In this document: in pieces, positions 33,766 to 61,200 of the stretch
Position numbering within the stretch: position 1 is the stretch's first letter
How the letters are laid out: each line of letters starts with the position of its first letter
NCBI RefSeq assembly: GCF_965363235.1
Contig: NC_134842.1
Location: 34,040,757 to 34,104,756, forward strand
DNA length: 64,000 nucleotides
Source: Mytilus galloprovincialis
Lineage: Eukaryota
Direction: 5' to 3'
Notes under the pieces: model-generated
What the model was told of the DNA's origin: nothing
Databases searched by the model: none
The model's input: only the letters and a program-made list of their open reading frames with translations
Made by a program: the position numbers and the translations under genes

Positions 33766-34009
33766 TGCTTCAATCTTCATGGCCTGTGATTTCAGTTTGG
33801 CTTGGTCTACAGCTGCCTCGCCCTCAATCCTGGCAGCTTCAGCTCGGGACTGTGCCTCTGCTTTAGCCTGACCAGTACTCTCTACTGCAGCACTGTTTGC
33901 CTGTAATTCTAACAATTGTTTCCTAGATTTCTCAGCTTCTGCTTCATCTGATATCTTTTGTCTCTCTAATCTTCCTTTAGCTTCCTGTTCTAATCTTTCT
34001 GCTTCATGC
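33766..34009 (-). CDS. MVP: MVP exon E11, coiled-coil cap-helix region: (R)[81 protein letters not shown]
   Basis: Strong similarity to the MVP region ...[37 protein letters not shown]...[10 protein letters not shown]. Acceptor ttttcag|GCATGAAGC; donor GCA|GTAAGT. Confidence 0.85.
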
Positions 34010-34506: not shown

Positions 34507-34612
34507 GGTTTTGCTCATTGTTGAAGGCCATACGGTGACCTTAATTTGTTAACTTTTATGTAATTTGGTCTCTGGTGGAGAGTTGTCTCATTGGCAATCA
34601 TACCGCATCTCC
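34507..34612 (+). repeat. S1 SINE/MITE-like repeat copy in MVP intron 10
   Basis: ggttttgctcattgttgaaggccatacggtgacc...ggtctctggtggagagttgtctcattggcaatcataccgcatc. Confidence 0.6.
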
Positions 34613-34738
34613 AATTTTATAAATATTCTACAGTCATCTTGAATTGAACTGTGTTTTAATGACTACTTTGCAGTAGTCTCCTGTACAATAATTGTGTGTT
34701 TTTAAGATACCAGTATAAGTTTCCATAGAGTTATCTAC

Positions 34739-34950
34739 CTTGCAGCAGCTTCCTGTGAGTTTGTTGTGATTTCAATGGCCAGTTGTACAGATTTCTGTAA
34801 GGCATCTCTTGTTCTCTGATCTACAGGCTCAACAGATTGGATATCAATACTGGTGAATACCAAGTTGTTTTGTGGGAATTTGAAAACTTCACGTACTTTG
34901 TCTTTGTCATCAAAACCAAACACAGAAGATCTGATGATCCTTGCAGAATT
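34739..34950 (-). CDS. MVP: MVP exon E10: [70 protein letters not shown]
   Basis: Matches the MVP shoulder region (...NSARIIRTAVFG...[36 protein letters not shown]). Acceptor tatgttacag|AATTCT; donor AG|GTAGAT. Confidence 0.85.
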
Positions 34951-35537
34951 CTGTAACATAAATGTGCAAATTTCTTAATTCTGAATTTTTCTGTCCACAG
35001 TAGATAATTTTCAGTTTGTACTGATTAATTGTGATCAAAATTTTTGTTTTTTATGGCATAATATATTTTTTCTTCATTTGATAGGATTGATTCACTCCTT
35101 GCCGAGGGTGGTAAAGGGTTATTTTCATGCAAAGTGTTTTGCCATTTTTATTTCACGTGCAGCTGTGAAAAAGGTTCGTTCTTCAGTGTTTCGTGAAATT
35201 GGTAATAAGATCAACGAGCAGGAAACTTGTAATTGTTCGTTCATCTTGAAATGGCAATTTTATTTCACGTTCAGATACCCTCCCTCTATATGCCCCTCCT
35301 TGCTCTGATGAGAAAAAATTACATTATGCAGTGATATAAACATGAAGTTTCCCATCTATCAATATGCCTCATGGAACACCAAAGGATATTCAAGAGTGGT
35401 TCTCTTACGCTCTTGAGTTTTTAGCACCACCCCTGGATTTTGAGAAAAGTTTGGAAAATAGTTCTTTAGTATAATTTTGAAAGACAATTTTTAGCTCATG
35501 TTTATTTGTTCATAAAATTAAAATGCAAGGTTAAATT

Positions 35538-35600
35538 CTATGCCATTTTGTCTCTGGTGGAGATTACTCAAATTGCCAATCATACCACACATTTACTTTT
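35538..35600 (+). repeat. Partial S1 repeat copy
   Basis: gtctctggtggagattactcaaattgccaatcataccacaca. Confidence 0.45.
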
Positions 35601-35764
35601 ATTTGCGCAATATTTATGAATATTTTCTCAATAGCTAAAACAATTTTTATATGCGTAATATTTATGAATAGAACAATAATTTTATGAGTTTGACCTATAA
35701 AAGAATTTCAGTGGTAATACCTGTGTCTATTAAGATCTACACTTGTACAGATTATTAATCATAC

Positions 35765-36107
35765 CTTGTGGAAATCATCAAACTGTACTTGAGCCACGGC
35801 TCCTCTAATCCGGGAGGCAATGGCCTTGCAGGCATCCCCAACAAAATCAGGTACACTGAAAATCTTAGATGCCTCAGTCTTATCTTCTTTATTTTTAATA
35901 TCAAAGTGCCAGTTGTATGACAGCTGAAGTGACAATCTAGCGTGATCGGCTGTTTCTACGGTGATAATGTCAGTACAGAAATCAGGTCCAAGAAGTAAAC
36001 ACAATGATTTGATAACATTTTGTTTCTTTGGTTTACCTCCAGAGAGACTAAGCTGTGTGAATTGTTCATCTGGACCCAACATAACTAATTCTGGACCAAA
36101 CACAACT
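35765..36107 (-). CDS. MVP: MVP exon E9: (R)[114 protein letters not shown]
   Basis: Near-identical to the MVP blocks [34 protein letters not shown] and [22 protein letters not shown]. Acceptor cctttatag|AGTTGTG; donor AAG|GTATGA. Confidence 0.9.
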
Positions 36108-36189
36108 CTATAAAGGAAAGAAAATTACAAGTGGTATTATTTCTATGTAACTAACTTCTGTGCAATCATCATCAATTGTTTGATACTTA

Positions 36190-36973
36190 GACCCTGTTCA
36201 CATTAGCATTTTTTTTATCGATCTAATTTGAATCGATCTAAATAAAACCAGTTAGCGTTCACATTATCTTTAATCATATCGATCTCTATCGGTCTAATAT
36301 GAACCACTGCGTTCACACTACAATTAAAAACGCAATCAATCTAACCTTTTTGCCCGTAAAACTGTAAACACTGTGTATTATAAATGTTATAAATAGAACT
36401 GATTTATCAAATGCATGTGCTGATACACTGATACACACACTTGGAAAAAAAAATTGGATAAAGTTATTGTTTCTCTTGAATCACAATTTAAAATTTTGAT
36501 ACTGGTGTTATTGCAGTTTTCTTTAATTTTGAAAAAAATAACTGTAGAAACGAAGTTACAACACGACGCCGGAAATACTGCGGTTCCTGCAAAGTAAAAA
36601 AAATCAACATAAGAAAAGAAGACACAGATTTCGAAAATCTATGCTATGGCGAAGACAACATGTTTACAGTTTGTTTTAAAGGTCTTTTAACAGAGAACTA
36701 TGGGTTAAACAACGAACCTATGTGATAGTTTTGCCGCTATACATGCGCATACGTTATTTTCGATTCAATCGTACTAGTTTAAACCGATCTCTGCGTTCAC
36801 ATCTAAAGTAAGATCGGTTTACTTTAGATCGATTCAAACTAAATTACCTCTTTTGGTGTTTTAGTTTAGACCGATTGAAGATCGATTCAATGCGTTCACA
36901 TTAGCCCTTAAACCGATCTAAAGTGAACCGGTCTAGTTTAAATCGATAAAAATGTCCTAGTGTGAACGGGGTC
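36190..36973. mobile_element. MITE-like non-autonomous DNA element (~785 bp) in MVP intron 8. Terminal inverted repeats GACCCTGTTCACATTAGC / CTAGTGTGAACGGGGTC; flanked by TA dinucleotides.
   Basis: The reverse complement of the 3' end is GACCCCGTTCACACTAGG, 15 of 18 matching the 5' end. TA at 36188-36189 and 36974-36975 suggests a Tc1/mariner-type target-site duplication. The interior has cgatc(t)aaa / gttcacat sub-repeats. Confidence 0.6.
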
Positions 36974-37488
36974 TAATTTTCTAGGATTTCAAGGGTATTG
37001 ATTAAATTTGTGAATTTTAAGTTTTCAATAAAATACAAATTTTGCCAAAATTGTCTGAATCAATCAACAATTATCAAAGATTTACATAAAGAACTTTGTT
37101 TGTTTCTTTCTAGATATTTGATTCCAGTTTCAGCAAAATTTGCCATACCATAGTGGTCAGATTTAATTAATTGAGAAAGCAGGAGTAACCATAAAGAACC
37201 ATTGATATTCAGCAGGAAAACTGGCATTTCTTGTTGATTAAGATTGATGTCTAACATACTTGGAACCCGCTGAGTTTGAACTCGCAACCTTAAATCGAAA
37301 GATTGTGATGATTGTATATGAACCTCTTAGACCATTAGGCCACTAAAGCCCTGAAGAAGTTGGTTTACAATGTGTACTTTCTACTCAATCAATATTCATA
37401 GATTGTTATGAATCAAATGACTAGCCTGATTCTGCTCATGGCCTGTTGGATATGGGAATGTATACACTGAGTATGAAAAACTATTTAC

Positions 37489-37727
37489 CTGGCTTTCTTT
37501 TCTTTATAATCATAAATCTGTACTGCAGCATTGTGTGGAACTCTGAATGTGACAACACGAGTCTTGTCGCGTGGTTTGGATGAATCACTTGATTTGGACC
37601 TATCACTCCTGTCTGCCATAGGGTCTTTTCCTTGGGCAAGAAGGGTCTCAACTGCAGGAGGAAGTTCTTTGGCCCATAATTCCTCATCTTGGTTTAACAT
37701 ATAGGTTTCTCCAGTTACAGCTCTGAC
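37489..37727 (-). CDS. MVP: MVP exon E8: [79 protein letters not shown](R)
   Basis: Matches MVP ...[29 protein letters not shown]...[19 protein letters not shown]. Acceptor ttatag|GTCAGAG; donor AG|GTAAAT. Confidence 0.85.
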
Positions 37728-38162
37728 CTATAATATGTATAATGTTAATCTTAGTCAAAACTTCACTAGTGTAAAGACAATATCAAACGTTGATGGATGA
37801 TGGGAGATGTTACTATTTAAATGGTTTGTGTGTTCTCTCAATAATGATATACAGTACCCAGTGTATTTTAAAAACATAACAATACATCAAATCTTAATTT
37901 ATAATTTTTGGTCAAAATAGAGATCCCCGGTGTTTCATAACATACACAAAATTCTCGGAATTGTTCAGTTACAAAATAGGTTGTTTTTTGTTTAACAAAA
38001 TTCATGAAAAAATCCTCACTTCAAAAAATAACTTCATTTTGCTAAATATTCCATTTAAAAAAGATTTTTTATCTTTCTTTTGAATTTAAAAAAAAAATGA
38101 ATTTGTTATTGTTGATTTCAAGTTTTAATGTTAGTATATATATATATATGTGTAACACCAAC

Positions 38163-38312
38163 CTTTCCAGTTTTAATATCTCTGACATAGATTCCCTCAT
38201 TTTCGTCCAATGGGATTGCAGTTCTCTTCATGATGACCTCGACCTCTACAGGTGGTACATATTCTGCTGGTCCCCTGATCATCCATTTATCTCCTGGTTT
38301 CCTTTCAACATC
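38163..38312 (-). CDS. MVP: MVP exon E7: [50 protein letters not shown]
   Basis: Matches [48 protein letters not shown]. Acceptor tatttaag|GATGTT. The donor AAG|GTTGGT is weak but needed to join E8 and give the TGKVRAV motif. Confidence 0.8.
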
Positions 38313-39062
38313 CTTAAATAAAAAGTTTGATAATAAATAACTTTGTTGTCACAAAAAATCTTTCCCAACAGAATCTTGATTTTGTAAATCTTGTTTTGAC
38401 TATCTTTTTATGTGCTAGTATGAAAAGAAATGACTTCTGAAGACTTAAACTGATAGTATTTATAAAACTACCAACAGTTCTACATTAAAAAGCAGCCATA
38501 AAAGTATAAAGTTGAAATGAAAAACTTGTTAGTGCAAAAACTTAAGTCAATAAGCATGGTAAATGCACTGAGAAAAACTTTGTCAAAGGACTGAACTTGT
38601 ACTTCATGAAAAATATTTTATTGCTCATGCAGAGATAGAACCCCTTTGAAGCTACATTAAGGCTATATGTTGTAAACTCGAAATAAATCATCTTTAAAGC
38701 CAGATTAAGTACACAGAAAACAGGTATCTATTAGTAAAGGAGTTTGATGAAATGTGTTTTGAAATTTGAATGAATAGAAATCTCAAACATGTAAGTCTTG
38801 AAAATGTAAAAAATGAAAATACTATTATGTTCAAGCAGATATGGCATGAATACCAAGCAAACTTATTAATAGACAGCTTTGAAAATATCAAGAATGAGCA
38901 TCTCTAATTAAATCAATTTGAGGCTAATAAGTTATTTATTATTCCTTTATTTTAAGGGATACATAATGATCAATTTTCGTTGATGGAGGATAATTTGCAT
39001 TAAAGTGGATATTTTATTTCTTGGTATTGCCAATCTGTGCTTTTGAAGTCATTAAAAAATTT

Positions 39063-39140
39063 GTAATGTGTTGAACATTTGAATTTGTAGTTCACCTGTA
39101 CCCACAAAACCCATGAAAGTTGGCATCCAATGAATAATAG
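39063..39140 (+). repeat. R2 dispersed repeat copy in MVP intron 7
   Basis: See 32878-32960. Confidence 0.4.
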
Positions 39141-40430
39141 AGTATTGCTTCTTATTGTCCAGTGGCAAGTATTACATAGATATTGGGAACAATAAAAGGC
39201 TAATGAGATATGAATATTAGATGACAGCATGAAAATAACTGATTTATTTTGTATCAAGAATTTGTTCTTGAAAATTAAGCTTATTAATATTTATTATGTA
39301 TCAAGAAGTTCTTGAAAATAACTTATTCAAATCCTTGATTTTAAAATTTCTTTTGAAAACTTGAACAAAAGATTATTGAAATAATATATTCAAACAACAC
39401 TGAATTTTTAAATATCTATTTACAAAGCGAAGTCACTGTGACTTACTTTTGTATAAACAGTATAGGAATCTCCCAATGGAATTGATGTTGAAATATGAAC
39501 CTAATATAAAGCATACTTATGTTATTGAAGCACACATTATAAGAAATCTTTTGTTATTATTTAGTACATTTATACAAATTGTAGCACTTTGCAATGCAAA
39601 CAGCTGAATTACATATCATTCAGGAAATCTACAAATTAACAACTAAATTATGTTTTGAAAAAGTTAAATGTCTTTGTTTATTGAACTATAAATAATTTGT
39701 TCTTTTTTCATTGTCTTTAATTAATCGATCTAGTTTCATATAAAAAGCATGGTTTGTTTTCATGATTCCCTTTAATGATGAGAAAAAACACTGGACAATT
39801 TAAGGCATTAGCAAAACACATTAGTAAAACACATTAGCAAAACAGGGATTAAAGGACAAACACACATTGAAAACACTAGATAATCAAAGGAAGCACTTCC
39901 TATTCTGAAGCAGCTAGCACATTACTTATATCTAATGTGTATGACAAGAATCACAGTTAGATCAAAGCACTGAAAGCATTAAGTGCACTTGCTGACTTAC
40001 TTTTTCATCAGGCTGAAATAAACAAAAAGGTAATATTCACCTTTTCTCTTCTCTGCTTTACACTTTAATGTTATTTGACATTTTACCATTTCAGAATCTA
40101 CCAGTAATGCATTTTGGGTAAAAACAAATTAAAAATGCCAAAAATGCAATTTGTTTTTCCAGAAAATAATGGATTTCCAACCAAAGGTGTAATGTAAACT
40201 TTACTTAGGTGTTTGAACAGCTTAAAATACCTTAGAGTCCCTTAGATCCTGAAATGGCAAATTAGTCAAAGAGAGACAGGCAGAATTAACATAAGCAGAC
40301 TTTTAATATTATGGTATACAACAAAATATTAACATGCAGAGTAAATAAATGTTATACAACAAAACAATCTAATCTTTTGACATAACTTTGAAAAATATAT
40401 GTTCACTGCATAGTGTACTGAATTTAAACA

Positions 40431-40910
40431 CTTCTATAAACCAGATGCTCTGCAGGGCACAGCTTTATACGACCGCAGAGGTTGAACCCTGAACAGTTGG
40501 GGCAAGTATGGACACAACATTTAAGCTTCATACAGCTCTGAATTTAGATTGTGATTAAATAGTTGACACAACATAGGTTTCTGACACAGAATGAATGTGG
40601 TCTAAGAACTTAAACTTAAAAAGTTAAAAATTTTAAATTGGACATTTACCTATTATGATCCAATATCCAAAATCTTAATACATGGTTAGATTCAGCATAT
40701 CATAAAACCACAAGAATTCAATTTTAGATAAAAACAATTTATGTTCAATTTTAGACCCTTTAGACCTCAATGTGGACCAATTTGATAACTGGGCGCAAAT
40801 ATTAAAAATCTAAATACATGGTTAGTTTTAGCATATTGAAGAACCCCATATATTCAATTTTTGTTGAAATCAAACAAAGTTTAATTTTTGACCATTTGGA
40901 CCTTAAAGTC
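40431..40910 (+). mobile_element. Fragment of the composite tandem-array element family (see 53881-55848): conserved head (ccagatgctctgcagggcacagctttatacgaccgcagaggttgaacc...) plus ~108-bp units. In MVP intron 7.
   Basis: Head at 40431-40620 is more than 90% identical to the heads at 51862, 52977, 53881 and 56683. Followed by units of the ttggaccctttggacc...tttaatt type. Confidence 0.7.
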
Positions 40911-41444
40911 ATGAAACGAGTGACTAGTGAAAAATAATGTTTATCCAATTCTTGAACCAATGCATGTATATATCATAAACTTAGTCTTCTGTGCACGATT
41001 TTATCATTTTTGACGCAAATATATTGTAGAATCGTCAATTTTTTCTCTCTCTGTCTGTTAAGATTTAACAAATATGGCTGGCTCGAAGTTAACCGATTGT
41101 CACCTTATACTAAACAAACAACAAAAAAGCATGGGTATTGAGCTTGTGTTTAACATGTACAATCAGATAATTGTTTATTTTAATGACAAATCCAAGCGAA
41201 TAGCGATCACCGGAATTTTTATGAGGAGGGTCACGCTAAGGTCACTATGCATACGGAAAATATGTCTGCAAATTGCTTCCTGGAAGCAAGCAATTAAAAA
41301 AAAAGTAAACTTCTTCTAAATGTGGACAAATTAAAGAATTTTCTTCAGAAAAAAGTATATGTGCATAAGTTATATAATGAAAACTATCCATTTAGTTATA
41401 AAAACATATGTATATTTTTTTTTAATTTGAGGTTTCAATTTGAA

Positions 41445-41700
41445 AACGGGACAATATTGTGCAATTGAATATTTCTTGTTATTGCGCAAAACTGTGTAAT
41501 TGAAAATTTCTTGCTATTGCACAATACTGTGCAATTGAAATTTTTTTGCTATTGCACAATACTTAATATAATAATTTTGGACCCTGATTTGGACCAACTT
41601 GAAAACTGGGCCCATAATACATGTTTAGATTCAGCATATCAAAGAACCCCAAGAATTCAATTTTTGTTAAAATCAAGCTAATTTTAATGTCAAGGCTTGT
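41445..41700 (+). repeat. Fragment of the same family: 35-bp array (caattgaaaatttcttgctattgcacaatactgtg, ~4 units) plus tail (ttaatataataattttggaccctgatttggaccaacttgaaaactgggcccataat...)
   Basis: Matches 52423-52755 and 57224-57540. Confidence 0.7.
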
Positions 41701-42039
41701 TTTTTGAAATAATCATGAAATTCAGTCTCTTTTCTGATTTTTTTCTTTGTTTTGGTATTTTGTAGTCATCATAGTCATGCTTTTTAGGAAATTTATGTTT
41801 TATTGATGGAAATGCAGTGACCTGATAAAACCACCCATCTATCTACAAGTAACTGACAAACTGTATCATACACACATGACTTATACCCTGTTAGTTTTGC
41901 AGACACAACTGTAATCTATGTTATAGATGCAAGATCCAGACAGATATCTGCCAGCTACCCTAGAGGCCTATACTCAAAACACACAAATCTCATTATCACT
42001 TTTCCCATACTTTTTATTAAATATATGTGGGATACTTAC

Positions 42040-42165
42040 AGCATCTGTATCTTTGAATGATTCTGTAGCTCTGAGTATAACACCTTCATCTTCTCCAAGT
42101 ACATAGACATTCTGGATTCCTCTCTCAAATCGTTCTCCAGGTAACAAAAAGAAGGAACACTCACC
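42040..42165 (-). CDS. MVP: MVP exon E6: GECSFFLLPGERFERGIQNVYVLGEDEGVILRATESFKDTDA
   Basis: Matches MVP [34 protein letters not shown]. Acceptor ttggtag|GGTGAG; donor GCT|GTAAGT. Confidence 0.85.
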
Positions 42166-42481
42166 CTACCAAAAATACATTGAAATTAGTAATACTACTA
42201 CCAAATGTATCTTTCTGCATCATAAAGGGAAGCAATTGTCCCCTAATAAAGAAAATATGAACCTTTTGCTATCAAATCTTCTTTATCAAAAAGAAACATC
42301 AAATTCCAACCAAAAAGTTATGTAGAATTTTAAATGTATCTTATTTTGAAGTACACACCAAGTTTGCATTACTTTCACAGTTCCCACAGTAAAGTAAAAA
42401 TTGACATTGAATATTGTATTATAATCATGATAATAGAATAAATAAAGGGGTAAATTCCCATGAAACAATTTTTCCCCATAC

Positions 42482-42592
42482 CTTGACTAATTTCTTTCTA
42501 CCAAGTTGTGGTCTGCCATGCTCATCTGAAGGGTCAAGGATTATACAGTATTGTCTGCTGGTTAATGTGGTAATATTCACTACTCCAACTAC
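42482..42592 (-). CDS. MVP: MVP exon E5: [37 protein letters not shown]
   Basis: Matches MVP [37 protein letters not shown]. Acceptor atttcag|GTAGTT; donor AAG|GTATGG. Confidence 0.85.
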
Positions 42593-43021
42593 CTGAAATA
42601 AAATAAAGTCACCTTCTTTAAAGTCAGAAGCTGGACAGCCATAAATAAATATTCCTTATTAAAAATCAAGGTAAATCATTTCAATCATGGTTATCAAAAA
42701 TGATCCCTGTGCAATCAACTGAGGTTTTACAAATTAAAACAAGGAAAAATGTTACCAAATTTTTTAAGAGATTATTTTTAAGGATTAGTCCTTTTCAGAC
42801 AATTTTGTACAATTTATAATTCTTTTAAGCTTTGCGTAAGTTTGACACTTTTCCCCATAATTTGGTTACTAAATAGTATAAATTGTTCCCTTTTATCAGC
42901 TGGTTTACAGTAATGGAAAACATTTCATTCACTGGTAAGGACATGTACAGTGAGAAAGCATTGATCACATAGAACAATGGCTACCTCATTATCTGGTATT
43001 TCACACCAGTGCAATACATAC

Positions 43022-43147
43022 CTCTTCATACACATTAGGTATGTGTGTTTCTGTGTCTGTCATTTTGATCAACCATTCCTCTCCGTTCTTTCTGGTTACA
43101 CCAAAGTCGTCTTTAAATGTTCTCAAGGACCTCATATGAAGGGCTTT
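43022..43147 (-). CDS. MVP: MVP exon E4: KALHMRSLRTFKDDFGVTRKNGEEWLIKMTDTETHIPNVYEE
   Basis: Matches MVP [41 protein letters not shown]. Acceptor tcttgcag|AAAGCC; donor GAG|GTATGT. Confidence 0.85.
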
Positions 43148-43498
43148 CTGCAAGATGTGAAAGAAAATATTTAATAACTTTAATATACATATTTCCACCA
43201 AACATATTTAAGAATCATCAATTAAAGGAGTACTGTATATTTTTTGTATGATTTACTCTTTATTCTATATATTTTTCTCCTCTCAATAACATGTATTATA
43301 GATAGTAACCTTTCTTAAGGTATCCTAGATTCTTTCCTAAACAAATATCAATTGCCATCTATTTTTTTCTAAATTCAAAATCTACCTAAATTTTGTGGTG
43401 ATACAATAATGTCCATGAATCATTTCACTGTAAATATTACTTTTTTTATTTTCATGTCTCCACAAAAATATTTTGTTGGTCTTATACAGCTTCTTTAC

Positions 43499-43850
43499 CT
43501 TATCTGTTAGAACATAGGCATTGACAACATCCACAACTTCTTCATAGGCTCCTGGGAGGTAAGCTCCAGTCTTCTTCACCAGCCATTCCTCACCAGTCAC
43601 CCTAGCAACACCTTGTCTATCAATAGTCTCCTTCCTGGCCCTCAGTCTAATGGCCTGGTTCGGTCTAATGACTGTGGCCCTGACAGTCTCCTCAATAACA
43701 ACCTCTTTCCTTGGGATATATGTTCCTGGTCCTTCAAATAGCCACTCATCCCCAGCTGTTCTCTTTTCTTCATCATCATCTTCAAAGTCTAGAATAGCTC
43801 TGAGCCGAAGAGCTGAGTTGGCTGCTACCACTTTTAAGGGAGTTACAACC
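43499..43850 (-). CDS. MVP: MVP exon E3: [117 protein letters not shown]
   Basis: Matches MVP [24 protein letters not shown]...[23 protein letters not shown]...RVTGEEWLV. Acceptor tttatag|GTTGTAAC; donor AAG|GTAAAG. The upper boundary is uncertain by 1 bp. Confidence 0.85.
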
Positions 43851-44609
43851 TATAAACAATAAGGGAGATAATAAAATTTGCTGCTAACACTTTTCACGTC
43901 ATAATAAGCTAGGCCTAATATTATGAATATCAAAAAATGAAAATTTAAATCATACATTGTTAACCTTGAAGATACTAGTTTAACTATCAAACAAGTCATT
44001 ATAATTTGGAGAACGACATTTAAAGGTGTGTGATATCAAGTATAACATCTAAGACATCTTACTTCCTTGTCACTCTACTGATCAATGTTGATTTAATAAC
44101 AAATCTTAAATGTTACCTGTACTGGATAGACAATGATAGAAACAAGACCTTGTAAACATATGATTACTTCCTTTTCAATTTCAATTTTACAAATTTTGTT
44201 TTCTTCATCCTGGATGATTTTCTCATGCATATGTAACGAAACCAAGACTATTTAAGTTTCAAAAAAGTCAATTTTCTCAGATCTCATTCAAACTATATCT
44301 GTGAATATTTCAAAAGCAGATGTTATCATCTGACTAGCAGATAAATGCTTACAAAATCCCTTGCAATGGAGCAATTATGCCAGATTTTGCGATTTTCATT
44401 GAATAAGATATACGAAATATTTTGGTGGTGATTGTTATGGTGGATTCAACCATTTTATCAATACATTTGCATGTTAACTTTTATATAGGAGGAATTTATT
44501 TGGACAATTTTGTTCTATCCAAGAAAATAAGCAAAAATTTACACCCTGCGAAAATAAGTGCCATACGGTAATACATGAAAACAAAGTGTAGCATAATGGT
44601 ACATCATAC

Positions 44610-44805
44610 TTGTTTTAGTATTTCCCCAGGGTACAGTGGGAAAGGATCCTGTGCCAATCTTATCTCCTGGTCAGCATGTACAAGTTTGGCCTGTCCACTT
44701 TCGTCAAAGACAACTTTACATTCTTTGTCTTTCAGTACTGGGTTTTCAATAATACAATAATGCCTTGGGGGGACAGTGATCATACGCTCTGGTCCATATA
44801 CAACT
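44610..44805 (-). CDS. MVP: MVP exon E2: (R)[65 protein letters not shown]
   Basis: Matches MVP ...[21 protein letters not shown]...[25 protein letters not shown]. Acceptor ttacag|AGTTGT; donor CAA|GTATGA. Confidence 0.85.
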
Positions 44806-45190
44806 CTGTAAGTAAAATTGCACATATGATACACGTTTTACAGTAGCTTTTCCCTTTGGATTACAATAATAGCTTAGAGAAATGTAAGAATAATAATTTA
44901 TTGTATCTATGATGAGTTTATTTAAACATGTAAAAAAAAACTTCAAATATAATTTTCATTAACTATAAACAATTTCTTCATTTTGTGATTAAAAATGGCA
45001 GAATAATATCAAGAAATGTTCATTGTATATAATGAACACTAGTAGTGATTACACATGGCCTTACATTAAAAAGAAAGGTCTATGGAACTTTTTCTAGTTC
45101 TGTATTTTCAAGGTTCCGATCAAACATATGTCCAAGATATGTAGGTGGTCCTTTTGTTACGTGGAAGCACTCTATAGAAAAAGTCCTTAC

Positions 45191-49142: not shown

Positions 49143-50571
49143 TTATTTAAGCATTTTCCCATTACATTTGACCATCATCAGCTTTTCAAATGTTCCATCA
49201 GCCAGTCTGCACCTTTCCGGCCTAAATGTTTTTCCAGCAGTGCTAAATAAGCGTTCAACTGGTGCAGATGTGGCTGGAATAGCTAAATATTGCACTGCTA
49301 ACTTAGCTAGACGTGGTAAACGTTGACAGTTACTATGCCAATACAAAAGAGGGTCTTTTGACATATCAATACAATTATCTGACAAGTAATCATCCATTTC
49401 TGAACTTACAGAAATCCCTGAAGGGTTTCTTTTTCTTTCCACTGATGGGGCTGGCATGAAACTGAAAAGATCATCATTTTTTGCTCGCTTACATGGGGGA
49501 GAATTTTGATCACAAGGGGGCTCAGATGATGTAGGGACTTGACTAAGTTTGTCCTTAACAACAGCTAAACACTGATCAATCTGTTCAGTTTCACACCATC
49601 TGGTCTTAAATCTTGGGTCTAAAAAGCTAGCAAGAATATATGCTTCATCCTCTACAAACTGAAACAATCTTTCTTCAACAGAAGATTTCAATGATTTTAT
49701 CATTTTACAATTATAGTCAACTGATATAAGTTTTAACTGGTGTTTTAATCCAAGTGTTACAGGAATTGGCAAGCTAGCAGTTACAGTTTTTTCACCTTGG
49801 ACAAGGACTGTAGCTTTGTCAAAAGGTTCAAGTATAGTACATAATTCAGAAAGCAGTTTTCTCTCATAGGATGAAAGCTTAGTTTTACAGTCTATTTTGT
49901 CCAATTCTAATTCTGGCACATTCAAAACTGAGCAAATCATATGCAGTTGTGAATTCCATCTTGTAGCATTAGCAGCTTGCAATCTTTTATAATCTTCAAG
50001 GATTTCTGAAGCAATAATAGATTTCCTAACAAAACTGACAATATTTGATGCCTTTGTAATAACAGTTTTAAGGTGGGGTGAACAATCTTTCAGGCCATCC
50101 TTAACAACCAATTGTAAGGTGTGTGCAAAGCATCTTGAATGTTTGGGTAAGCAGTCGGATAAATGTAGCCCAGTCCAAAATAAAGTGGCCTGTGATTCCC
50201 AAAAATCCTCTCATTTGTCTACTAGACCAGAGATCAATGGTTAAACACACACTTTCAGCTCTTTTAAGAGTATTTACAAGGTTATTTTTTATTTCAACCG
50301 ATTTTTCATGTAGAAGTTTCGAAGATAAATGCTTTCTGCTAGGCACTTGATACTTAGTGTCAGCTTTTTCCATCAAGTTTTTAAATTCTTCACTTTCGAC
50401 AATAGAGAGTGGTAAAAGATCCCCAGCTATGAACATTATAAGAGCATTTGTCATTTCTAACTGTTTTGGATCAGACGGTGAATATTTTACACTTTTTTTT
50501 ATGCATTGTGTCAATGTTGGTTGAATTTCTTTATTCTCAGAATGCAGAATGTACAAATCTCTGTGTTTTCT
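49143..50571 (-). pseudogene. hAT transposase core plus hATC dimerisation domain, with a frame disruption at about 50100-50115. The segment between the HFI..W block and the CFAHTLNL block, which normally carries the second catalytic D, appears to be missing.
   Basis: ORF 50101-50691 (frame A) ends ...GITGHFILDWATFIRLLTQTFKMLCTHLTIGC*. The +1 frame continues ...RCFAHTLQLVVKDGLK... through ...SVERLFSTAG...MMVKCN (ORF 49143-50111). Acceptor ttttcag|AGAAAACAC at about 50572. Confidence 0.6.
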
Positions 50572-50951
50572 CTGAAAATTACAAAAGGCCTTATTTAATA
50601 TCTTGAAAATATTAAATTGTTTTAATTTACCTATTGAAATTTTACATTTATTTAAATTTATTTGATTGTAAATGATACAAAAAAAGAGCACTATTTTTTA
50701 TTTTTTGAAATGATTTTCATTTTTATCCCAGCTTATTCAAATTATTTATCTTAAATAAGTGATTTAGAAATCTGACTTCTTAAAACAAAAATAAACTTTA
50801 GTTTTAATCACAACTAATTAATTTAATAAACAAAATATTTTCCAAATTTAAATGTAAGCTATTAGAGGATATAAGATAAATGAAATCTGATTAGAAATGA
50901 AAAAGAAGCATTATGAATTTATTAATTTTTAAAATTCTTATATAGTATTAC

Positions 50952-51861: not shown

Positions 51862-52755
51862 TTAATAACCAGATGCTCCACAGGGCGCAGCTTTATACGA
51901 CCGCAGAGGTTGAACCCTCACGGAACGGTTGGGGCAAGTATGGACACAACATTCAAGCTGGATTCAGCTCTAAATTTGGATTGTGATTAAATAGTTGACA
52001 CAGCATAGGTTTCTGACACAGAATGAATGTGGTCTAATGAACTTAAAATATTTTTTTTGCCTTTGAGCAATTCACTATGCTGTTGAATATTAATCCTCTC
52101 AAAAAAATGTTTGAAGAAATTTTCTTTTTATTTATGACATCTGGAATGAGAAAAATTTAACCCCCCCTTTTTTTCACATCCCCCTTTCCCTTTTTCCAAA
52201 ACTGATCTCAATTCAAATTTCTAATGGAGTTTGCAACAATAACTACTCATTTAAATACATCATAAAATATTAAAATGTAAAATAAAGTGCTTGTTATCAC
52301 TGAATGGTAAAGATTGTTTTAATATATCAGTTGGTAGTAAAAGTGAATATACATTGTATATTGTATAAAACAATGATTTAAGTTGATTCAACTACTATTC
52401 TGGACAAAGAAAGATAACTCCAATTGAAAATTTCTTGCTATTGCAAAATATTGTGCAATTAGATATTTCTTGCTATTGCACAATACTGTGCAATTGAAAA
52501 TATTTGCTATTGCACCATACTGTGCAATTGAAGATTTCTTGCTATTGCGCAATACTGTGCAATTAAAAATTTCTTGCTATTGCACAATACTGTGCAATTG
52601 AAGATTTCTTGCTATTGCTGAATACTGTGCAATTGAAAATTTCTTGCTATTGCACAATACTTAATATAATAATTTTGGATCCTGATTTGTACCAACTTGA
52701 AAACTGGGCCCATAATAAAAAATCAAGTACATGTTTAGATTCAGCATATCAAACT
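51862..52755 (+). mobile_element. Partial copy of the composite element: head + body + 35-bp array (52423-52660, 7 units) + start of the tail
   Basis: Head ccagatgctccacagggcgcagctttatacgaccgcagaggttgaaccc... is more than 90% identical to the other heads. Confidence 0.7.
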
Positions 52756-52976
52756 AGAGGCTCTCAAGAGCCTGTGTCGCTCACCTTGGTCTATGTGCAT
52801 ATTAAACAATGGACACAGATAAATTCATGACAAAATTGTGTTTTGGTGATCATGATGTGTTTGTAGATCTTACTTTACTGAACATTCTTCTTGCTACAGT
52901 TATCTCTATCTATAATGAACTTGGCCCAGTAATTACAGTGGAAAATATATTCTACAAAATTTACAAAAATTTACAA

Positions 52977-53512
52977 CCAGATGCTCCGCAGGGCGTAGCT
53001 TTATACGACCGCAGAGGTTGAACCCTGAACGGTTGGGGCAAGTATGGACACAACATTCAAGCTGGATTCAGCTCTAAATTTGGATTGTGATTAAATAGTT
53101 GACATAGCATAGGTTTCTGACACAGAATGAATGTGTTCTAATGAACTTAAAATTTTTGTTTTCTCTTAGAGCAATTCACTATGCTGTTGAATATTAATCC
53201 TCTCAAAAAAATGTTTGAAGAAATTTTCTTTTTTATTTATGAAATTTCAAATGAGAAAAATTGAACCCAATTTTTTTAATCACATCCCCCTTTCCCTTAT
53301 TCCAAAACTAATCTCAATTAAAATTTCTAATGGAGTTTGCAACAATAACTACTCATTTAAATACATCATAAAATATTAAGATGTAAAAAAACTGCTTGTT
53401 ATCACTGAATGGTAAAGATTATTTTAATTTATCAGTTGGTAGTAAAAGTGAATATACATTGTATATTGTATATAACAAAGATTTAAGTTGATTCTGGACA
53501 AAGAAAGATATA
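52977..53512 (+). mobile_element. Partial copy (head + body) of the composite element
   Basis: Same head and body sequence, truncated before the arrays. Confidence 0.7.
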
Positions 53513-53880
53513 CGACCGCAGAGGTTGAACCCCAGTTGGGGCAAGTATGGACACAACATTTAAGCTGGATTCAGCTCTAAATTTGGATTGTGATAAAATA
53601 GTTGACACAGCATAGGTTTCTGACAGAGAATGAATGTGGTCTAATGAACTTAAAATATTTTTTTGGCCTTTGAGCAACTCACTATGCTGTTGAATATTAA
53701 TCCTCTCAAAAAAATGTTTGAAGAAATTTTCTTATTATTTATGAAATCTGAAATGAGAAAAATTTAACCCCCCCCCTCATTTTTTTTTACATCCCCCTTT
53801 CCCTTTTTCCAAAACTGATCTCAATTCAAATTCCTAATGGAGTTTGCAACAATAACTACTCATTTAAATACATCATAAAA
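53513..53880 (+). mobile_element. Partial copy (head + body, truncated at both ends), abutting the next copy
   Basis: Begins atacgaccgcagaggttgaacccc. Confidence 0.65.
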
Positions 53881-55848
53881 GGCGTAGCTTTATACGACCG
53901 CAGAGGTTGAACCCTGAACGGTTGGGGCAAGTATGGACACAACATTCAAGCTGGATTCAGCTCTAAATTTGGATTGTGATTAAATAGTTGACATAGCATA
54001 GGTTTCTGACACAGAATGAATGTGTTCTAATGAACTTAAAATTTTTGTTTTCTCTTAGAGCAATTCACTATGCTGTTGAATATTAATCCTCTCAAAAAAA
54101 TGTTTGAAGAAATTTTCTTTTTTATTTATGAAATTTCAAATGAGAAAAATTGAACCCAATTTTTTTAATCACATCCCCCTTTCCCTTATTCCAAAACTAA
54201 TCTCAATTAAAATTTCTAATGGAGTTTGCAACAATAACTACTCATTTAAAAACATCATAAAATATTAAGATGTAAAAAAACTGCTTGTTATCACTGAATG
54301 GTAAAGATTATTTTAATTTATCAGTTGGTAGTAAAAAGTGAATATACATTGTATATTGTATATAACAAAGATTTAAGTTGATTCTGGACAAAGAAAGATA
54401 ACTCCAATTAAAAAAAAATCTTGCTATTGCACAATATTTTGCAATTAGATATTTCTTGCTTACTATTCTGGACAAAGAAAGATAACTCTAATTAAAAAAA
54501 AATTTGCTATTTCACAATATTGTGCAATTAGATATTTCTTGCCATTGCGCAATACTGTGCAATTGAAAAGACTTGCTATTGCACAATACTTAATATAATA
54601 ATTTTAGATCCTGATTTGGACCAACTTGAAAACTGGGCCCATAATAAAAAATCTAAGTACATTTTTGGATTCAGCATATCAAAGAACCCCAAGATTTCAA
54701 TTTTTGTTAAAATCAGACTAAGTTTAATTTTGGACCCTTTGGACTTTAGTGTAGACCAATTTGAAAACAGGACCAAAAATGAAGAATCTACATACACAGT
54801 TAGATTTGGTATATCAAAGAACCCCATTTATTCAATTTTTGATGAAATCAAACAAAGTTTAATTTTGGACCCCGATTTGGACCAACTTGAAAACTGGGCC
54901 AATAATCAAGAATCTAAGTACATTTTTAGATTCAGCATATCAAAGAACTTAACTGATTCATTTTTTGTCAAAATCAAACTAAGTTTAATTTTGGACCCTT
55001 TGGACCTTAATGTAGACCAATTTGAAAACGGGACCAAAAGTTAAGAATCTACATACACAGTCATGACAGTTAGATTCGGCATATCAAAGAACCCCAATTA
55101 TTCAATTTTGATGAAATCAAACAAAGTTTAATTTTGGACCCTTTGGGCCCCTTATTCTGTTGGGACCAAACCTCCCAAAATCAATACCAACCTTCCTTTT
55201 ATGGTCATAAACCTTGTGTTTAAATTTCATAGATTTCTATTTACTTATACTAACGTTATGGTGCGAAAACCAAGAAAAATGCTTATTTGGGTCCCTTTTT
55301 GGCCCCTAATTCCTAAACTGTTGGGACATTAACTCCCAAAATCAATACCAACCTTCCTTTTGTAGTCATTAACATTGTGTTTAAATTTCATTGATTTCTA
55401 TTTACTTAAACTAAAGTTATTGTGCGAAAACCAAGAATAATGCTTATTTGGGCCCTTTTTTGGCCCCTAATTCCTAAACTGTTGAAACCAAAACTCCCAA
55501 AATCAATCCCAACCGTTCTTTTGTGGTCATAAACCTTGTGTCAAAATTTCATAGATTTCTATTAACTTAAACTAAAGTTATAGTGCGAAAACCAAGAAAA
55601 TGCTTATTTGGGCCCTTTTTGGCCCCTAATTCCTAAAATGATGGGACCAAAACTGCCAAAATCAATACCAACCTTCCTTTTGTGGTCATAAACCTTGTGT
55701 TAAAATTTCATAGATTTCCATTCACTTTTACTAAAGTTAGAGTGCGAAAACTAAAAGTATTCGGACGACGACGACGACGCCAACGTGATAGCAATATACG
55801 ACGAAAAATTTTTCAAATTTTGCGGTTGTATAAAAACTTATGAAAATT
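53881..55848 (+). mobile_element. Full-length composite non-autonomous element (~1.97 kb): head with sub-terminal inverted repeat TTTATACGACCGCAG; unique body; degenerate 35-bp array (~54405-54590); ~108-bp array (54600-55140); ~160-bp array (55140-55750); (GAC)n; 3' terminus ...TTGCGGTTGTATAAAAACT. Possibly Helentron/HINE-like.
   Basis: The 3' inverted repeat (reverse complement agtttttatacaaccgcaa) pairs with the 5' tttatacgaccgcag. The internal arrays were read directly. The same architecture occurs at 56673-58703. Confidence 0.6.
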
Positions 55849-56672
55849 GTTAAAAAATGACTATAAAGGACAATAACTCCTTAAGGGGTAACTTCACAAT
55901 TTTGGTCATGTTGACTTATTTGTAGATCTTACTTTGCTGAACATTATTGCTGTTTACAGTTTATCTCTATCTGTTATAATATTCAAGATAATAACCAAAA
56001 ACTGCAAAATTTCCTTAAAATTACTAATTCTGGGGCAGCAACCCAACAACAGGGTGTCTGTTTTGTCTGAAATTTCAGGGCAGATAGATCTTTACCTGAT
56101 AAACAATTTATCTCTTGTCAGATATGCTCTAAATACTTTGGTTTCAGAGATATAAGCCAAAATCTACATTTTACCCCTATGTTCTATTTTTAGCCATGGC
56201 GGCCATTTTGGTTGGTTGGCAGGGTCACGCCACACATTTTTTAAACTAGATACCCCAATGATGATTTTGGCCAAGTTTGGATTAATTTGGCCCAGTAGTT
56301 ATAGAGAAGAATATCTTTTGTAAAAGATAACTAAGATTTACGAAAAATGGTTAAAAATTGACTATAAAGGGCAATAACTCCTAAAGGGGTCAACTGACCA
56401 TTTTGGTCATGTTGACCTTTTTGTAAATCTTACTTTGCTGAACATTATTGCAGTTTACAGTTTATCTCTATCTATAATAATATTCAAGATAATAACCAAA
56501 AACAGTAAAATTTCCTTAAAATTGTCAATTTAGGGGCAGCAACCCAATAACTGGTTGTCCGATTCTTCTGAAAATTTCAGGGCAGATAGATCTTGACTTG
56601 ATAAACAAATTTACCCAATGTCAGATTTGCTCTAAATGCTTTGGTTTTTAAGTTATAAGCCAACCAAAAATC
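55849..56672 (+). repeat. Two tandem ~330-bp core units (55849-56180 and 56340-56672) separated by a ~160-bp insert (ccatggcggccattttggttggttggcagggtcacgcc...). A partial core also precedes the head at 52756-52975.
   Basis: tatgaaaattgttaaaaaatgactataaaggacaataactcc...cagggcagatagatc...ataagccaa repeated at ~85% identity. Confidence 0.6.
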
Positions 56673-58703
56673 TCCGCAGGGCGCAGCTATATACGACCGC
56701 AGAGGTTGAACCCCAGTTGGGGCAAGTATGGACACAACATTTAAGCTGGATTCAGCTCTAAATTTGGATTGTGATAAAATAGTTGACACAGCATAGGTTT
56801 CTGACACAGAATGAATGTGGTCTAATGAACTTAAAATATTTTTTTGGCCTTTGAGCAACTCACTATGCTGTTGAATATTAATCCTCTCAAAAAAATGTTT
56901 GAAGAAATTTTCTTTTTATTTATGAAATCTGAAATGAGAAAAATTTAACCCTCCCCCCCCCCATTTTTTTTTTACATCCCCCTTTCCCTTTTTCCAAAAC
57001 TGATCTCAATTCAAATTTCTAATGGAGTTTGCAAAAATAACTACTCATTTAAATACATCATAAAATATTAAAATGTAACAAAAGGTGCTTGTTATCACTG
57101 AATGGTAAAGATTGTTTTAATTTATCAGTTGGTAGTAAAAGTGAATATACATTGTATATTGTATAAAACAATGAATTTAGTTGACTCAACTACTATTCTG
57201 GACAAAGAAAGATAACTCCAATCAATTGAAAATTTCTTGCTATTGCACAATATTGTGCAATTAGATATTTCTGGCTATTGCGCAATACTGTGCAATTGAA
57301 AATATTTGCTATTGCACAATACTGTGTAATTGAAGATTTCTTGCTATTGCGCAATACTGAGCAATTGAAAATTTCTTGCTATTGCACAAAACTGTGCAAT
57401 TGAAGATTTCTTGCTATTGCTGAATACTGTGCAATTGAAAATTTCTTGCTATTGCACAATACTTAATATAGTAATTTTGGATCCTGATTTGAACCAACTT
57501 GAAAACTGGGCGCATAAACAAAAATCTAAGTACATGTTTAGATTCAGCATATCAAAAAAGCCCAAAAATTCAATTTTTGTTAAAATCAAATTTAGTTTAA
57601 TTTTGGACCCTTTGGACTTTAATGTAGACCAATTTGAAAACGGGACCAAAAATTAAGAATCTACATACACAGTTAGATTTGGCATATCAAAGAACCCCAA
57701 TTATTCAATTTTTGATGAAATCAAACAAAGTTTAATTTTGGACCCCGATTTGGACCAACTTGAAAACTGGGCCAATAATCAAAAATCTAAGTACATTTTT
57801 TAGATTCAACATATCAAAGAACCCCAAGGATTCAATTTTTGTTAAAATCAAACTAAGTTTAATTTTGGACCCTTTGGACCTTAATGTAGACCAATTTGAA
57901 AACGGGACCAATAATTAAGAATCTACAGACACAGTTAGATTTAGCATATCAAAGAACCCCAATTATTCAATTTTTGATGAAATCAAACAAAGTTCAATTT
58001 TGGACCCTTTGGGCCCCTTATTCCTAAACTGTTGGGATCAAAACTCCCAAAATCAAACCCAACCTTCCTTTTATGGTCATAAACCTTGTGTTTAAATTTC
58101 ATAGATTTCTATTTACTTATACTTAAGTTATGGTGCGAAAAACAAGAATAATGCTTATTTGGGCCCCTTTTTGGCCCCTAATTCCTAAACTGTTGGGACC
58201 TCAACTCCCAAAATCAATCCCAACCTTCCTTTTGTGGTCATAAACCTTGTGTTTAAATTTCACTGATTTCTATTTACTTATACTAAACATTCTAAAGTTA
58301 TTGTGCGAAAACCAAGAATAATGCTTATTTGGGCCCTTTTTTGGCCCCTAATTCCTAAACTGTTGGAACCAAAGCTCCCAAAATCAGACCCAACCTTCCT
58401 TTTGTGGTCATAAACCTTGTGTCAAAATTTCATAGATTTCTATTCACTTGAACTAAAGTTATAGTGCGAAAACAAAGAAAATGCTTATTTGGGCCCTTTT
58501 TGGCCCCTAATTCCTAAAATGTTGGGACCAAAACTCCCAAAATCAATCCCAACCTTCCTTTTGTAGTCATAAACCTTGTGTCAAAATTTCATCGATTTCT
58601 ATTCACTTTACTAAAGTTAGAGTGCGAAAACTAAAAGTATTCGGACGACGACGACGTGATACCAATATACAACCAAAAAATTTTCAATTAGATTTATACG
58701 GTC
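56673..58703 (+). mobile_element. Second full-length composite element (~2.03 kb): head; 35-bp array (57224-57463, 7 units); ~108-bp array (57470-58010); ~160-bp array (58010-58625); 3' terminus ...ATTTATACGGTCGTATAAAAACT
   Basis: Same order of modules as 53881-55848. The 3' sub-terminal inverted repeat matches the 5' TTTATACGACCG at 12 of 12 positions. Confidence 0.6.
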
Positions 58704-59089
58704 GTATAAAAACTAAGGCAAGTCAGAATGTACCATTCATTGGTGGATTATTTGATACATGTATATACTATAATGAGATAGACCAATCGAAGTTTAATGC
58801 AGTTTTTATCACAAAATGTTTTTAAAGATATTTTAGAGCATCATCTTAAGCTTTGATGAGTTCTAATTGGTGACATCAAATTAGGTCTGACTTCCTGTGC
58901 TGCGTTTTGTGGAAATGTAATTCTCAAATAAAAACATGTTTTACCCTGCCACATGTTTAATTTCCCCTGTCCCAAGTCAGGAGCCTCTGGCCTTTGTAAG
59001 TCTTGTATGATTTTTAATTTAAGTTTCTTGTGTAAAATTCAGAGTTTAGTACATGTACGACACCCATTATCACTGAACTAGTCTACATA

Positions 59090-60639: not shown

Positions 60640-61200
60640 ATTTGCACTTTGTCAAATGGGGTCATCTGATATATCAAATTGAAGGTCTCAATAAACTCTA
60701 CTTAAAAACGAAAATGTTAAACCCCCTTTTCATCCCAGGGGGACGGGTGGGGTCATTTAGTGCAAACATTCAAATTTCTCAGATGTTAAGGTTGTCGCAT
60801 ATCAAATGAAAGAACATAAAGCGTACATTTCAAATTTCAATTGACATCCCCAAAAAATTGGTTGGGTGGGGTCATTGAGTGCAAAACATCAATTTTCTTT
60901 TACGATAGGGTTGTTGTATATCAAATGAAAGGTCATGATGTGTACATTTGAAATATCAAATTCCCGACCTCCAAAAATTAGTTGGATAGGGTTATTAAGT
61001 GCAAAAATCAAACTTTCAAGAACATGGTGTTGTCGCATATCAAACGAAAGCTCATCTACTCTGTTCCATATATCATAATTCCGATCTCAAAAATGTAGAC
61101 GGATGAGGTCATTAAGTGTAAAAAGCGAAAAGTTTCAGAAGATGTGTTTGTCGTATATCAAACGAAAGGTCGTACAAAGTACAATACGAAAACATCACTT
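60640..61200. repeat. ~120-bp minisatellite, 4-5 diverged units (gtcatt.agtgcaaa...tgttgtcgcatatcaaatgaaagg...acatttcaaat...)
   Basis: Units start near 60688, 60808, 60928 and 61048, at ~75-85% identity. Confidence 0.7.

Follow-up and report, generated by a model that had tools for sequence, protein, structure and literature searches.

The block at 51867-58712 of the window (the whole 64,000-nt stretch of Mytilus galloprovincialis DNA analyzed here) is a pile-up of copies of one ~2-kb element that carries three tandem-repeat arrays. We consider this non-coding repeat very likely to be a non-autonomous rolling-circle transposon of the Helentron-associated kind (HINE; similar to DINE-1, pearl and Cg_HINE), a superfamily placement supported on purely structural grounds: when the element is read on the minus strand, all testable structural hallmarks of HINEs are present. 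An earlier interpretation made from the letters alone (the sequence-only reading) had proposed a DINE-1/HINE-type Helentron derivative, and this proposal gains support from defined termini, an internal inverted repeat (IR) in addition to subterminal ones (subTIRs), a microsatellite, a palindrome at the 3′ end, apparent insertion at T-runs, no target-site duplication (TSD), and the lack of any open reading frame (ORF) with a Pfam domain. Elements of this kind have been well characterized in bivalves before, and the locus, a tidy but ordinary example, leaves current ideas on Helentrons unchanged.

By self-BLAST of positions 56640-58730 against the window, together with TRF and a repeat search, we mapped two ~2-kb full copies (D and E) and three truncated ones (A, B and C), the same inventory that the sequence-only reading had given (Table 1). 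Their common modular order was also confirmed, running on the plus strand from the head through a ~390-nt unique body and the 35-bp, 126/135-bp and 161-170-bp arrays to (GAC)4-5 and the terminus. Orientation, assigned by comparison with the published HINE and Cg_HINE layouts (PMC4067079, PMC7492417), proved to be the reverse of that first given: the plus-strand "head" is the 3′ end, with subTIR and palindrome, and the "tail" is the 5′ end, with subTIR, IR and microsatellite. Six occurrences of the invariant 18-mer AACCTCTGCGGTCGTATA were counted in the window, versus none in any of 100 shuffles.

Copy E has the variant GGAGATTTTTGGTT as its 3′ tip. Copy A, which holds a partial 135-bp unit, 6.9 units of the 35-bp array, the body and the 3′ end, is ~93% identical to all other copies, and A, D and E diverge by 7-12%; three subfamilies are represented within the cluster. 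Fragment B is 99.7% identical to D, while fragment C, patched between D and B, is of the E subfamily (97.6% identical to E, 90% to B and D); jointly, D, C and B make up a single insertion unit of 2.86 kb that has both termini. Copy D breaks off in the palindrome, ~20 nt short of its 3′ terminus, and C in the 3′ subTIR, which places both internal breakpoints of the unit inside the 3′ termination signal. The copies had been described as nested head-to-tail; they are indeed adjacent in one orientation, but partly rearranged and not simple nested insertions. Comparable abutting truncated copies are found on contig L003 and possibly on L027. Outside the cluster, family fragments suspected near 40431-40910 and 41445-41700 were confirmed at 40439-40909 and 41451-41688, the former within an intron of the MVP gene, whose identity was confirmed by exon search.

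Table 1. Positions in the window of copies, fragments and component parts of the element, and of neighboring family X.
Feature	Position	Strand	Remarks
Copy E, full long variant, 2051 bp	56662..58712	-	5′ end 58712, 3′ end 56662
Copy D, counted as full	53881..55836	-	complete 5′ end 55836, all three arrays and body
Fragment C	53508..53880	-	body and 3′ subTIR only
Fragment B	52975..53510	-	body and complete 3′ end (...GAGCATCTGGTT at 52975)
Copy A, older, 5′-truncated	51867..52753	-	complete 3′ end at 51867
Old short-variant fragment	40439..40909	-	complete 3′ end at 40439, 170-nt 3′ module, ~2 units of 135-bp array
Isolated family fragment	41451..41688	-	35-bp array x3.2 and one 135-bp unit
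5′ terminus and 5′ subTIR of E (TTTTTATACGACCG...)	58696..58712	-	
5′ terminus and 5′ subTIR of D (TTTTTATACAACCGCA)	~55820-55836	-	
(GTC)4 microsatellite of E	58644..58655	-	(GAC)n on plus strand
(GTC)5 microsatellite of D	55764-55778	-	
161-170-bp array of E, x3.9	57997..58631	-	TRF
161-170-bp array of D, x3.7	55157-55751	-	
135/126-bp array of E, ~4 units	57472..58012	-	262-bp higher-order repeat x2; TRF, repeat search
135/126-bp array of D	54619-55146	-	
35-bp array of E, x6.9	57223..57463	-	TRF
35-bp array of D, x2.7	54381-54590	-	plus 84-bp duplication
35-bp array of A	52421-52661	-	
Unique body of long variant in E	56836..57222	-	absent from short variant
3′ module of E, ~170 nt	56662..56835	-	common to long and short variants
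3′ subTIR CTGCGGTCGTATA(A/T)A in E	~56688-56702	-	
Palindrome GCTGCGC-CCT-GCGGAG in E	~56672-56687	-	
Spacer between E and D, family X (501-bp unit x1.66)	55837..56661	-	target of D-C-B insertion
Family X continuation beyond D-C-B	52754..52974	-	abuts truncated copy A

Unrelated sequence precedes the 5′ end TTTTTATACGACCGCAAA in 9 copies (D, E, L003, L011, L027 with two ends, L028, L031 and L032) and follows the 3′ end ...GAGCATCTGGTT in 11 copies (A, B, the 40439 fragment, L003, L011, L014, L029 with two ends, L030, L032 and L033). That 9 5′ ends and 11 3′ ends, in the window and in metagenome contigs, stop at the same base beside unrelated flanks marks the repeat as a transposon rather than a segmental duplication; the sequence-only reading had named copies that all end at different points as evidence against a transposon, and these independent copies share their ends. 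On the plus strand the element finishes with ...GTATAAAAA (55836 in D, 58712 in E). The "CT" that follows, previously counted as terminal, is flank, because other copies carry different bases there.

Read on the minus strand, the element begins with TT and, from nucleotide 3, the 14-nt subTIR TTTATACGACCGCA, an order seen in 9 independent 5′ ends. The inverted repeat postulated near both ends is real, extending over 23 nt at 87% complementarity with the perfect 14-nt core (L003, L011), and the complementary 3′ subTIR TGCGGTCGTATAAA starts 40 nt from the 3′ end. The internal IR CGTCGTATA is able to pair with the 5′ subTIR, and the two fold together at -10.5 kcal/mol (z = -2.35). At the 3′ end, the subTIR is directly followed by a 17-nt imperfect palindrome, GCTGCGC-CCT-GCGGAGC, 8 nt from the end, and the tip reads CATCTGGTT-3′ (...CTGGTT). 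This palindrome keeps the same fold register in three sequence variants, that of the 40439 fragment having a compensatory C-G to T-A change; with 3+3 bp flanking an internal mismatch, it is short and thermodynamically weak, being no more stable than shuffled sequence (z ~-0.7).

As the sequence-only reading had it, the minisatellites are internal, between the subterminal inverted repeats. On the minus strand, the IR is followed by (GTC)4-14, the 161-bp array (x3.7-3.9), the 126/135-bp array (x4), the 35-bp array (x2.7-6.9), the ~390-nt body and the ~170-nt 3′ module, with (GTC)n numbering 13-14 units in external copies. The three arrays are consecutive, not nested as first described, and the middle one, to which a period of ~108 bp had been given, has a period of 135 bp alternating with 126-127 bp in a higher-order unit of 261-262 bp (x2). 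Every 35-bp unit contains the palindrome ATTGCACAAT/ATTGTGCAAT, and no mutual relationship was detected between the 161-bp and 135-bp units. A short variant of 1064 bp (~1.06 kb) is without the 35-bp array and the body that are present in the ~2.0-kb long variant.

The four full copies agree in array order and are near-identical in unit counts. Each 161-bp monomer is closest to the monomer at the same position in other copies (94-100% identity, versus 85-91% between positions). This positional orthology holds across loci; the arrays are thus carried along as cargo of constant order and phase and did not arise at this locus, contrary to what had been suggested. The large satellite at the left of the window (1-28633; 28 kb, units of 1291/1748 bp), which had been tied to the element, has no sequence in common with the family. 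The joint movement of three unrelated arrays as fixed cargo bears on the origin of dispersed satellite-like arrays and of ApaI-type satellites in bivalves. ApaI sites form a ~160-bp ladder here, presumably reminiscent of the Mytilus ApaI satellites. Three satellites, of 169, 260 and 70 bp, were reportedly found in mussel HSP70 introns by Kourtidis et al. in 2006, and by their size we take them to resemble the 161-170-bp, 261-bp and 2x35-bp units of this family.

The unit recurs, bounded by the same ends, beside unrelated flanks at 40439 in the window and on at least 10 metagenome contigs. Between copy D and the metagenome copy L011, whose flanks differ, identity is 99.4% across 1956 nt, which suggests recent activity. 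No TSD was found in the complete copies L003, L011 and L032, whose flanks are GCAAGAA|...|TAGATTC, AATAATA|...|TTTTTAG and CAACAAG|...|AAAAAAA, respectively. Two paralogous empty-site comparisons put insertions at T-runs of family X, with exact use of a TT target masked by the element's own T5 at its start and TT at its end; in the sole comparison within the window, the 5′ junction has 6 additional bases (CATAAG) that are unexplained. Family X ends on the minus strand with GGCTCTTGAGAGCC-TCTAG and then T, that is, with a hairpin and CTAG as at the 3′ end of a canonical Helitron. The separate ~330-bp core said to be duplicated between copies is a real repeat (320 nt, 501-bp spacing, 86.6% identity), but it belongs to this different family.

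Searches for coding capacity found no ORF beyond array read-through in the element, whose 3′ module is full of stops in all frames, no Pfam domain in any of 33 database ORF clusters, and no Rep/helicase ORF in the window. ARAGORN predicted 0 tRNAs, and Rfam gave no family at the gathering threshold and none of relevance at E<=1. A metagenome scan with the terminal 18-mer returned 18 loci: L003, L011 and L014 alone carry the element, and chance occurrences of the 18-mer seem to account for the others. Viral contigs scanned with the 18-mer gave 0 matches, and the 3 matches from a scan of bacterial and archaeal genomes look like chance since none matched the element by BLAST. Literature string searches with the subTIR and other k-mers of the element produced no match.

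Among other explanations, a cut-and-paste MITE with terminal inverted repeats, mobilized by a DDE transposase and flanked by a 2-bp TSD, would suit the inverted repeats close to both ends and the T dinucleotides there, readable as a TT (or AA) duplication; look-alike bivalve elements (pearl, DTC84) were so classified in earlier papers (PMC3879986), only to be later reassigned to Helentrons (PMC4067079; PMC7492417). We regard this origin as very unlikely, given the subterminal, asymmetric placing of the inverted repeats (2 nt and ~25-40 nt from the respective ends), termini that are not inverted copies of each other (TTTTTATAC... versus ...CATCTGGTT), a palindrome at one end only, and no duplication beyond the T-runs in L003, L011 and L032. 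A non-autonomous canonical Helitron would share the general rolling-circle logic of asymmetric ends, 3′ hairpin and no TSD, and oyster equivalents are filed in Repbase as "Helitron-N", but the defining 5′-TC...CTRR-3′ ends, with insertion between A and T and no inverted repeats, are absent: the element starts with TTTTTATAC, ends with CTGGTT and has subTIRs, in contrast to family X next to it, which does end with hairpin, CTAG and T. Such an assignment thus seems highly improbable.

Hardly any weight falls on the idea that a repeat-rich block was only duplicated locally, segmentally or in tandem, and never transposed. The five copies do share one orientation and fit into 7 kb, and the identities of B to D and of C to E do indicate that some local copying occurred; as sole explanation, however, duplication is refuted by the shared ends at unrelated loci, and A, D and E differ as separate subfamilies do. 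Just as improbable is a SINE-like retroposon on the plus strand, in which a pol-III head would be paired with an A-rich tail following (GAC)n. While GGTTGAACCC in the plus-strand head resembles a B box and the terminus reads AAAAA, there is no similarity to tRNA, 5S or 7SL (ARAGORN; Rfam even at E<=1), a TSD is lacking and the element has subterminal inverted repeats. In addition, what the truncated copies of the cluster retain is the plus-strand "head" and what they lack is the "tail", whereas retroposons are usually truncated at the 5′ end.

If the element is a HINE, as we favor, a Helentron Rep-helicase(-endonuclease) supplied in trans would, by analogy with the family, recognize both ends; one strand would then be peeled off, starting at the 5′ end and stopping at the 3′ hairpin signal, and pasted into a T-run, where the target is not duplicated. 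The cluster comprises at least three separate insertions (A, D/B and E) of different subfamilies, in one orientation, in and beside family X, followed by one later rearrangement in which an E-like piece, C, was patched into D and the 3′ half of D re-copied as B. The rearranged unit might be a footprint of rolling-circle template switching, with patch C derived from the neighboring E-type copy, a suggestion we consider doubtful. Should failed termination and re-initiation on a nearby copy be regular, they would offer a direct route to longer tandem units, head-to-tail clusters and satellite seeding, and true template switching, together with near-identical copies at different loci, would make the family a currently active, tractable model. 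Annotators should regard everything from 51.9 to 58.7 kb, upstream of the MVP gene, as transposon debris and should not score it as genic or regulatory. The locus also provides an example, outside oysters, of a rolling-circle element that carries tandem repeats, with exact termini, two structural variants and signs of recent movement.

HINEs are defined by a 5′ subTIR of 11-15 bp located 2-4 nt from the 5′ terminus, a 3′ subTIR ~38-60 nt from the 3′ terminus followed by a palindrome 8-35 nt from it, T-rich or TT insertion with no TSD, and a non-coding core with a microsatellite and/or tandem repeats (PMC4067079). The mussel family resembles HINE/DINE-1 elements (Thomas, Vadnagara & Pritham 2014, PMC4067079) in subTIR length (12-15 bp) and position (2-4 nt from the 5′ end), with the 3′ subTIR ~40 nt from the 3′ end, in its palindrome (8-35 nt from that end) and T-rich ends, and in being non-coding, with unmodified targets and both microsatellite and tandem repeats, whereas its subTIR sequence matches none of the 15 families listed there. 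By description only, it is also like pearl (CvA/CvE/CvG), MgE of M. galloprovincialis and DTC84 of Donax trunculus, which have arms, inverted repeats near the ends, and a microsatellite beside a short array of ~160-bp core repeats; compared in the same way, MgE differs in being reported without a microsatellite (PMC3879986), whereas the family described here has (GTC)n. Sequence similarity of the 161- and 135-bp units to BIV160/Cg170-type core repeats of the pearl lineage was not seen in the one oyster cluster on which it was judged, Cg170/CL1 (dimer local alignment scored 18 versus 16.4 +/- 2.4 for shuffled sequence), and no 10-15-mers were shared with the oyster array table.

The layout also matches that of Cg_HINE of Crassostrea gigas (Vojvoda Zeljko et al. 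2020, PMC7492417), in which the left flank consists of subTIR, IR and microsatellite (GTCY types), the right flank of subTIR and then palindrome, and insertion is T-rich or TT with no TSD. Cg_HINEs have one array, exceptionally two, and an IR 1-12 nt from the subTIR, whereas the mussel family has three unrelated arrays (161, 126/135 and 35 bp) with a ~390-nt body and an IR ~20 nt away. The likeness, especially to the two-array Cg_HINE_10_13 and Cg_HINE_11_12, covers the flank layout, the GTC-type microsatellite, a central array of ~160-bp units, a 3′ subTIR immediately followed by the palindrome, apparently T-rich insertion sites, no TSD, and variable combinations of modules.

TRF, repeat finding and a self-BLAST of positions 56640-58730 against the window all recovered one modular repeat family at 51.9-58.7 kb, made up of full and truncated copies as the sequence-only reading had described, and the window holds six occurrences of the family's invariant 18-mer AACCTCTGCGGTCGTATA, versus none in 100 shuffles. 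Because the published layout of HINE (Helentron-associated) elements, including Cg_HINE, is matched point by point by the minus strand (PMC4067079; PMC7492417), that reading had the element back to front: its 'head' is the 3′ end and its 'tail' is the 5′ end.

Features of the window; boundaries of the element copies were adjusted by inspection of the sequence after TRF and BLAST
Feature	Window coordinates	Description
Left macrosatellite	1-28633	28.6 kb; units of 1291 and 1748 bp, differing by a ~457-bp segment
MVP exons	32126-44834 (minus)	PF01505 repeats
Further family fragments	40439-40909 and 41451-41688	within an MVP intron
Adjacent ORFs	49143-50691 (minus)	322 and 196 aa
A	51867-52753	3′ end complete, copy truncated
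X piece	52754-52974	different repeat family (501-bp unit)
B	52975-53510	body and complete 3′ end
C	53508-53880	only body and 3′ subTIR
D	53881-55836	full copy, 3′ tip short by about 20 nt
X spacer	55837-56661	different repeat family (501-bp unit)
E	56662-58712	full copy
35-bp units	52421-52661, 54381-54590, 57223-57463	each with a ~20-nt palindrome
ApaI sites	41608, 52706, 54635, 55145-55610, 58011-58491	GGGCCC
Other tandem repeat	60750-61168	~117-119 bp x3.5, 75-80% identity, unrelated to the family

In minus-strand orientation the element begins TT-TTTATACGACCGCA, with a subterminal inverted repeat (subTIR) that starts 2 nt from the end; the inverted partner of this repeat, CGTCGTATA, lies about 20 nt downstream, and the two pair at -10.5 kcal/mol (z = -2.35). 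Next comes a microsatellite, (GTC)n with 4-14 units, followed by the 161-bp, 126/135-bp and 35-bp arrays, a unique body of ~390 nt, and a 3′ module of ~170 nt terminating ...CTC-TGCGGTCGTATAAA-GCTGCGCCCTGCGGAGC-ATCTGGTT, in which the complementary subTIR runs directly into a 17-nt imperfect palindrome that ends 8 nt before the 3′ terminus. The last nucleotides of the element include CTCTGCGGTCGTATAAAGCTGCGCCCTGCGGAGCATCTGGTT. Inverted repeats near both ends had been noted from the start, and we found them to share a perfect 14-nt core, with 87% complementarity over 23 nt in total. The 3′ palindrome is short, with a stability not above that of shuffled sequence when folded; its folding register is unchanged in three sequence variants, one of which, the copy at 40439, shows a compensatory substitution of T-A for C-G. 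The element had no match among Rfam families or tRNAs, and none of its ORFs has a Pfam domain.

Additional copies were obtained by an 18-mer scan of metagenome contigs (L003, L011 and L014) and by a protein search with a spurious ORF running through the 135-bp array, followed by retrieval of the contigs of the matches (L026-L033). Rather than ending at different points, the copies share fixed termini: nine independent 5′ ends begin at the same T-run and 11 independent 3′ ends finish at ...CTGGTT, with unrelated sequences upstream and downstream, respectively. No target-site duplication was found in the complete copies L003 (1972 bp), L011 (2007 bp) and L032 (1064 bp). Copy D and L011 are 99.4% identical across 1956 nt while lying in different flanks, and for this reason the family appears to have been active recently. 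Within the cluster, B and D form a subfamily with L011 and L003 (98-99.7%), C and E form another (97.6%), and A is ~93% identical to all others. Assigned from its structure, this is very probably a structurally complete, recently active HINE-type family with three satellite-like arrays.

With A, D/B and E each from a different subfamily, the cluster records at least three insertions, all in the same orientation. D-C-B behaves as a single insertion unit bearing both termini; when it is removed in silico, the rejoined flanks align colinearly with a paralogous X unit of the spacer, and the insertion site is a T-run (CCATTTT^TCG), although 6 extra bases are present at the 5′ junction. The 5′ end of the element likewise falls exactly at a T5 run in an X copy on contig L031. 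Inside the unit, D ends within the palindrome, the patch C, of E type, extends from the body into the 3′ subTIR, where it breaks off, and B restarts at the junction of 35-bp array and body and continues to a perfect 3′ end. This arrangement looks like the product of template switching, or of repair, which we infer would have drawn on the neighbouring E copy. Truncated copies that abut one another occur on L003 too, and possibly on L027. Family X, the target of HINE insertions both in the window and on metagenome contig L031, ends on the minus strand in GGCTCTTGAGAGCC-TCTAG with T as the next base; this combination of a hairpin and CTAG resembles the canonical Helitron 3′ end.

The three arrays, thought from sequence alone to be nested, are consecutive, with periods of 35 bp, 135 bp alternating with 126-127 bp (a 261-262-bp higher-order unit, in place of the ~108 bp proposed earlier for the middle array), and 161-170 bp. 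Their order is identical and their unit numbers nearly equal in all four full copies, and each 161-bp monomer shares 94-100% identity with its positional counterpart in other copies versus only 85-91% with its neighbour in its own copy. Contrary to the earlier proposal, the arrays therefore did not arise at this locus; they were put together a single time, in an ancestor, and travel with the element as cargo. The palindrome of the 35-bp units, ATTGCACAATATTGTGCAAT, gives weak, chance-level miRNA-precursor matches in Rfam. Nor could the big left satellite be tied to the element: neither the HINE family nor family X has any sequence in common with it. Its 18 or more units are about 100% identical, which suggests that it was amplified very recently or else is an artefact of assembly.

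All 10 ApaI sites of the 64-kb window fall inside the element family and, within the 161-bp arrays, recur every 150-170 bp or so, which means that digestion with ApaI would yield a satellite-like ladder. The element may correspond to MgE, to the mg1-3 satellites or to the Mytilus ApaI satellites, a possibility for which the placement and spacing of these sites is the sole supporting observation.

Among neighbouring features, the major vault protein gene (MVP) was confirmed by Pfam PF01505, with its closest database ORFs (95-98% identical) on metagenome and Logan contigs. Between this gene and the cluster, the 322-aa ORF has a hAT C-terminal dimerisation domain (PF05699, E = 1.3e-18); with the adjacent 196-aa ORF, it represents either the remains of a hAT transposase or a gene that has been domesticated.

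In a short variant of the element the 35-bp array and the body are missing, leaving the 5′ module, (GTC)n, the 161- and 135-bp arrays and the 170-nt 3′ module; L032 (1064 bp), L029 and L030 are of this type, as is the fragment at 40439 in the window. Contig L027 (ena:ERZ6864376:c_000004312015) carries two 5′ modules ~900 nt apart, at minus-strand 182 and 1081, the second with a different interior (CGGATGCCCTTTTTCTCG...) after (GTC)n, which suggests that the 5′ module may also be combined with other cargo. No similarity to the oyster Cg170/CL1 repeats was detected, and the existence of long and short variants resembles the modular pattern described for Cg_HINE. HINE-type elements are already a well-described kind, of which this family is a further example.
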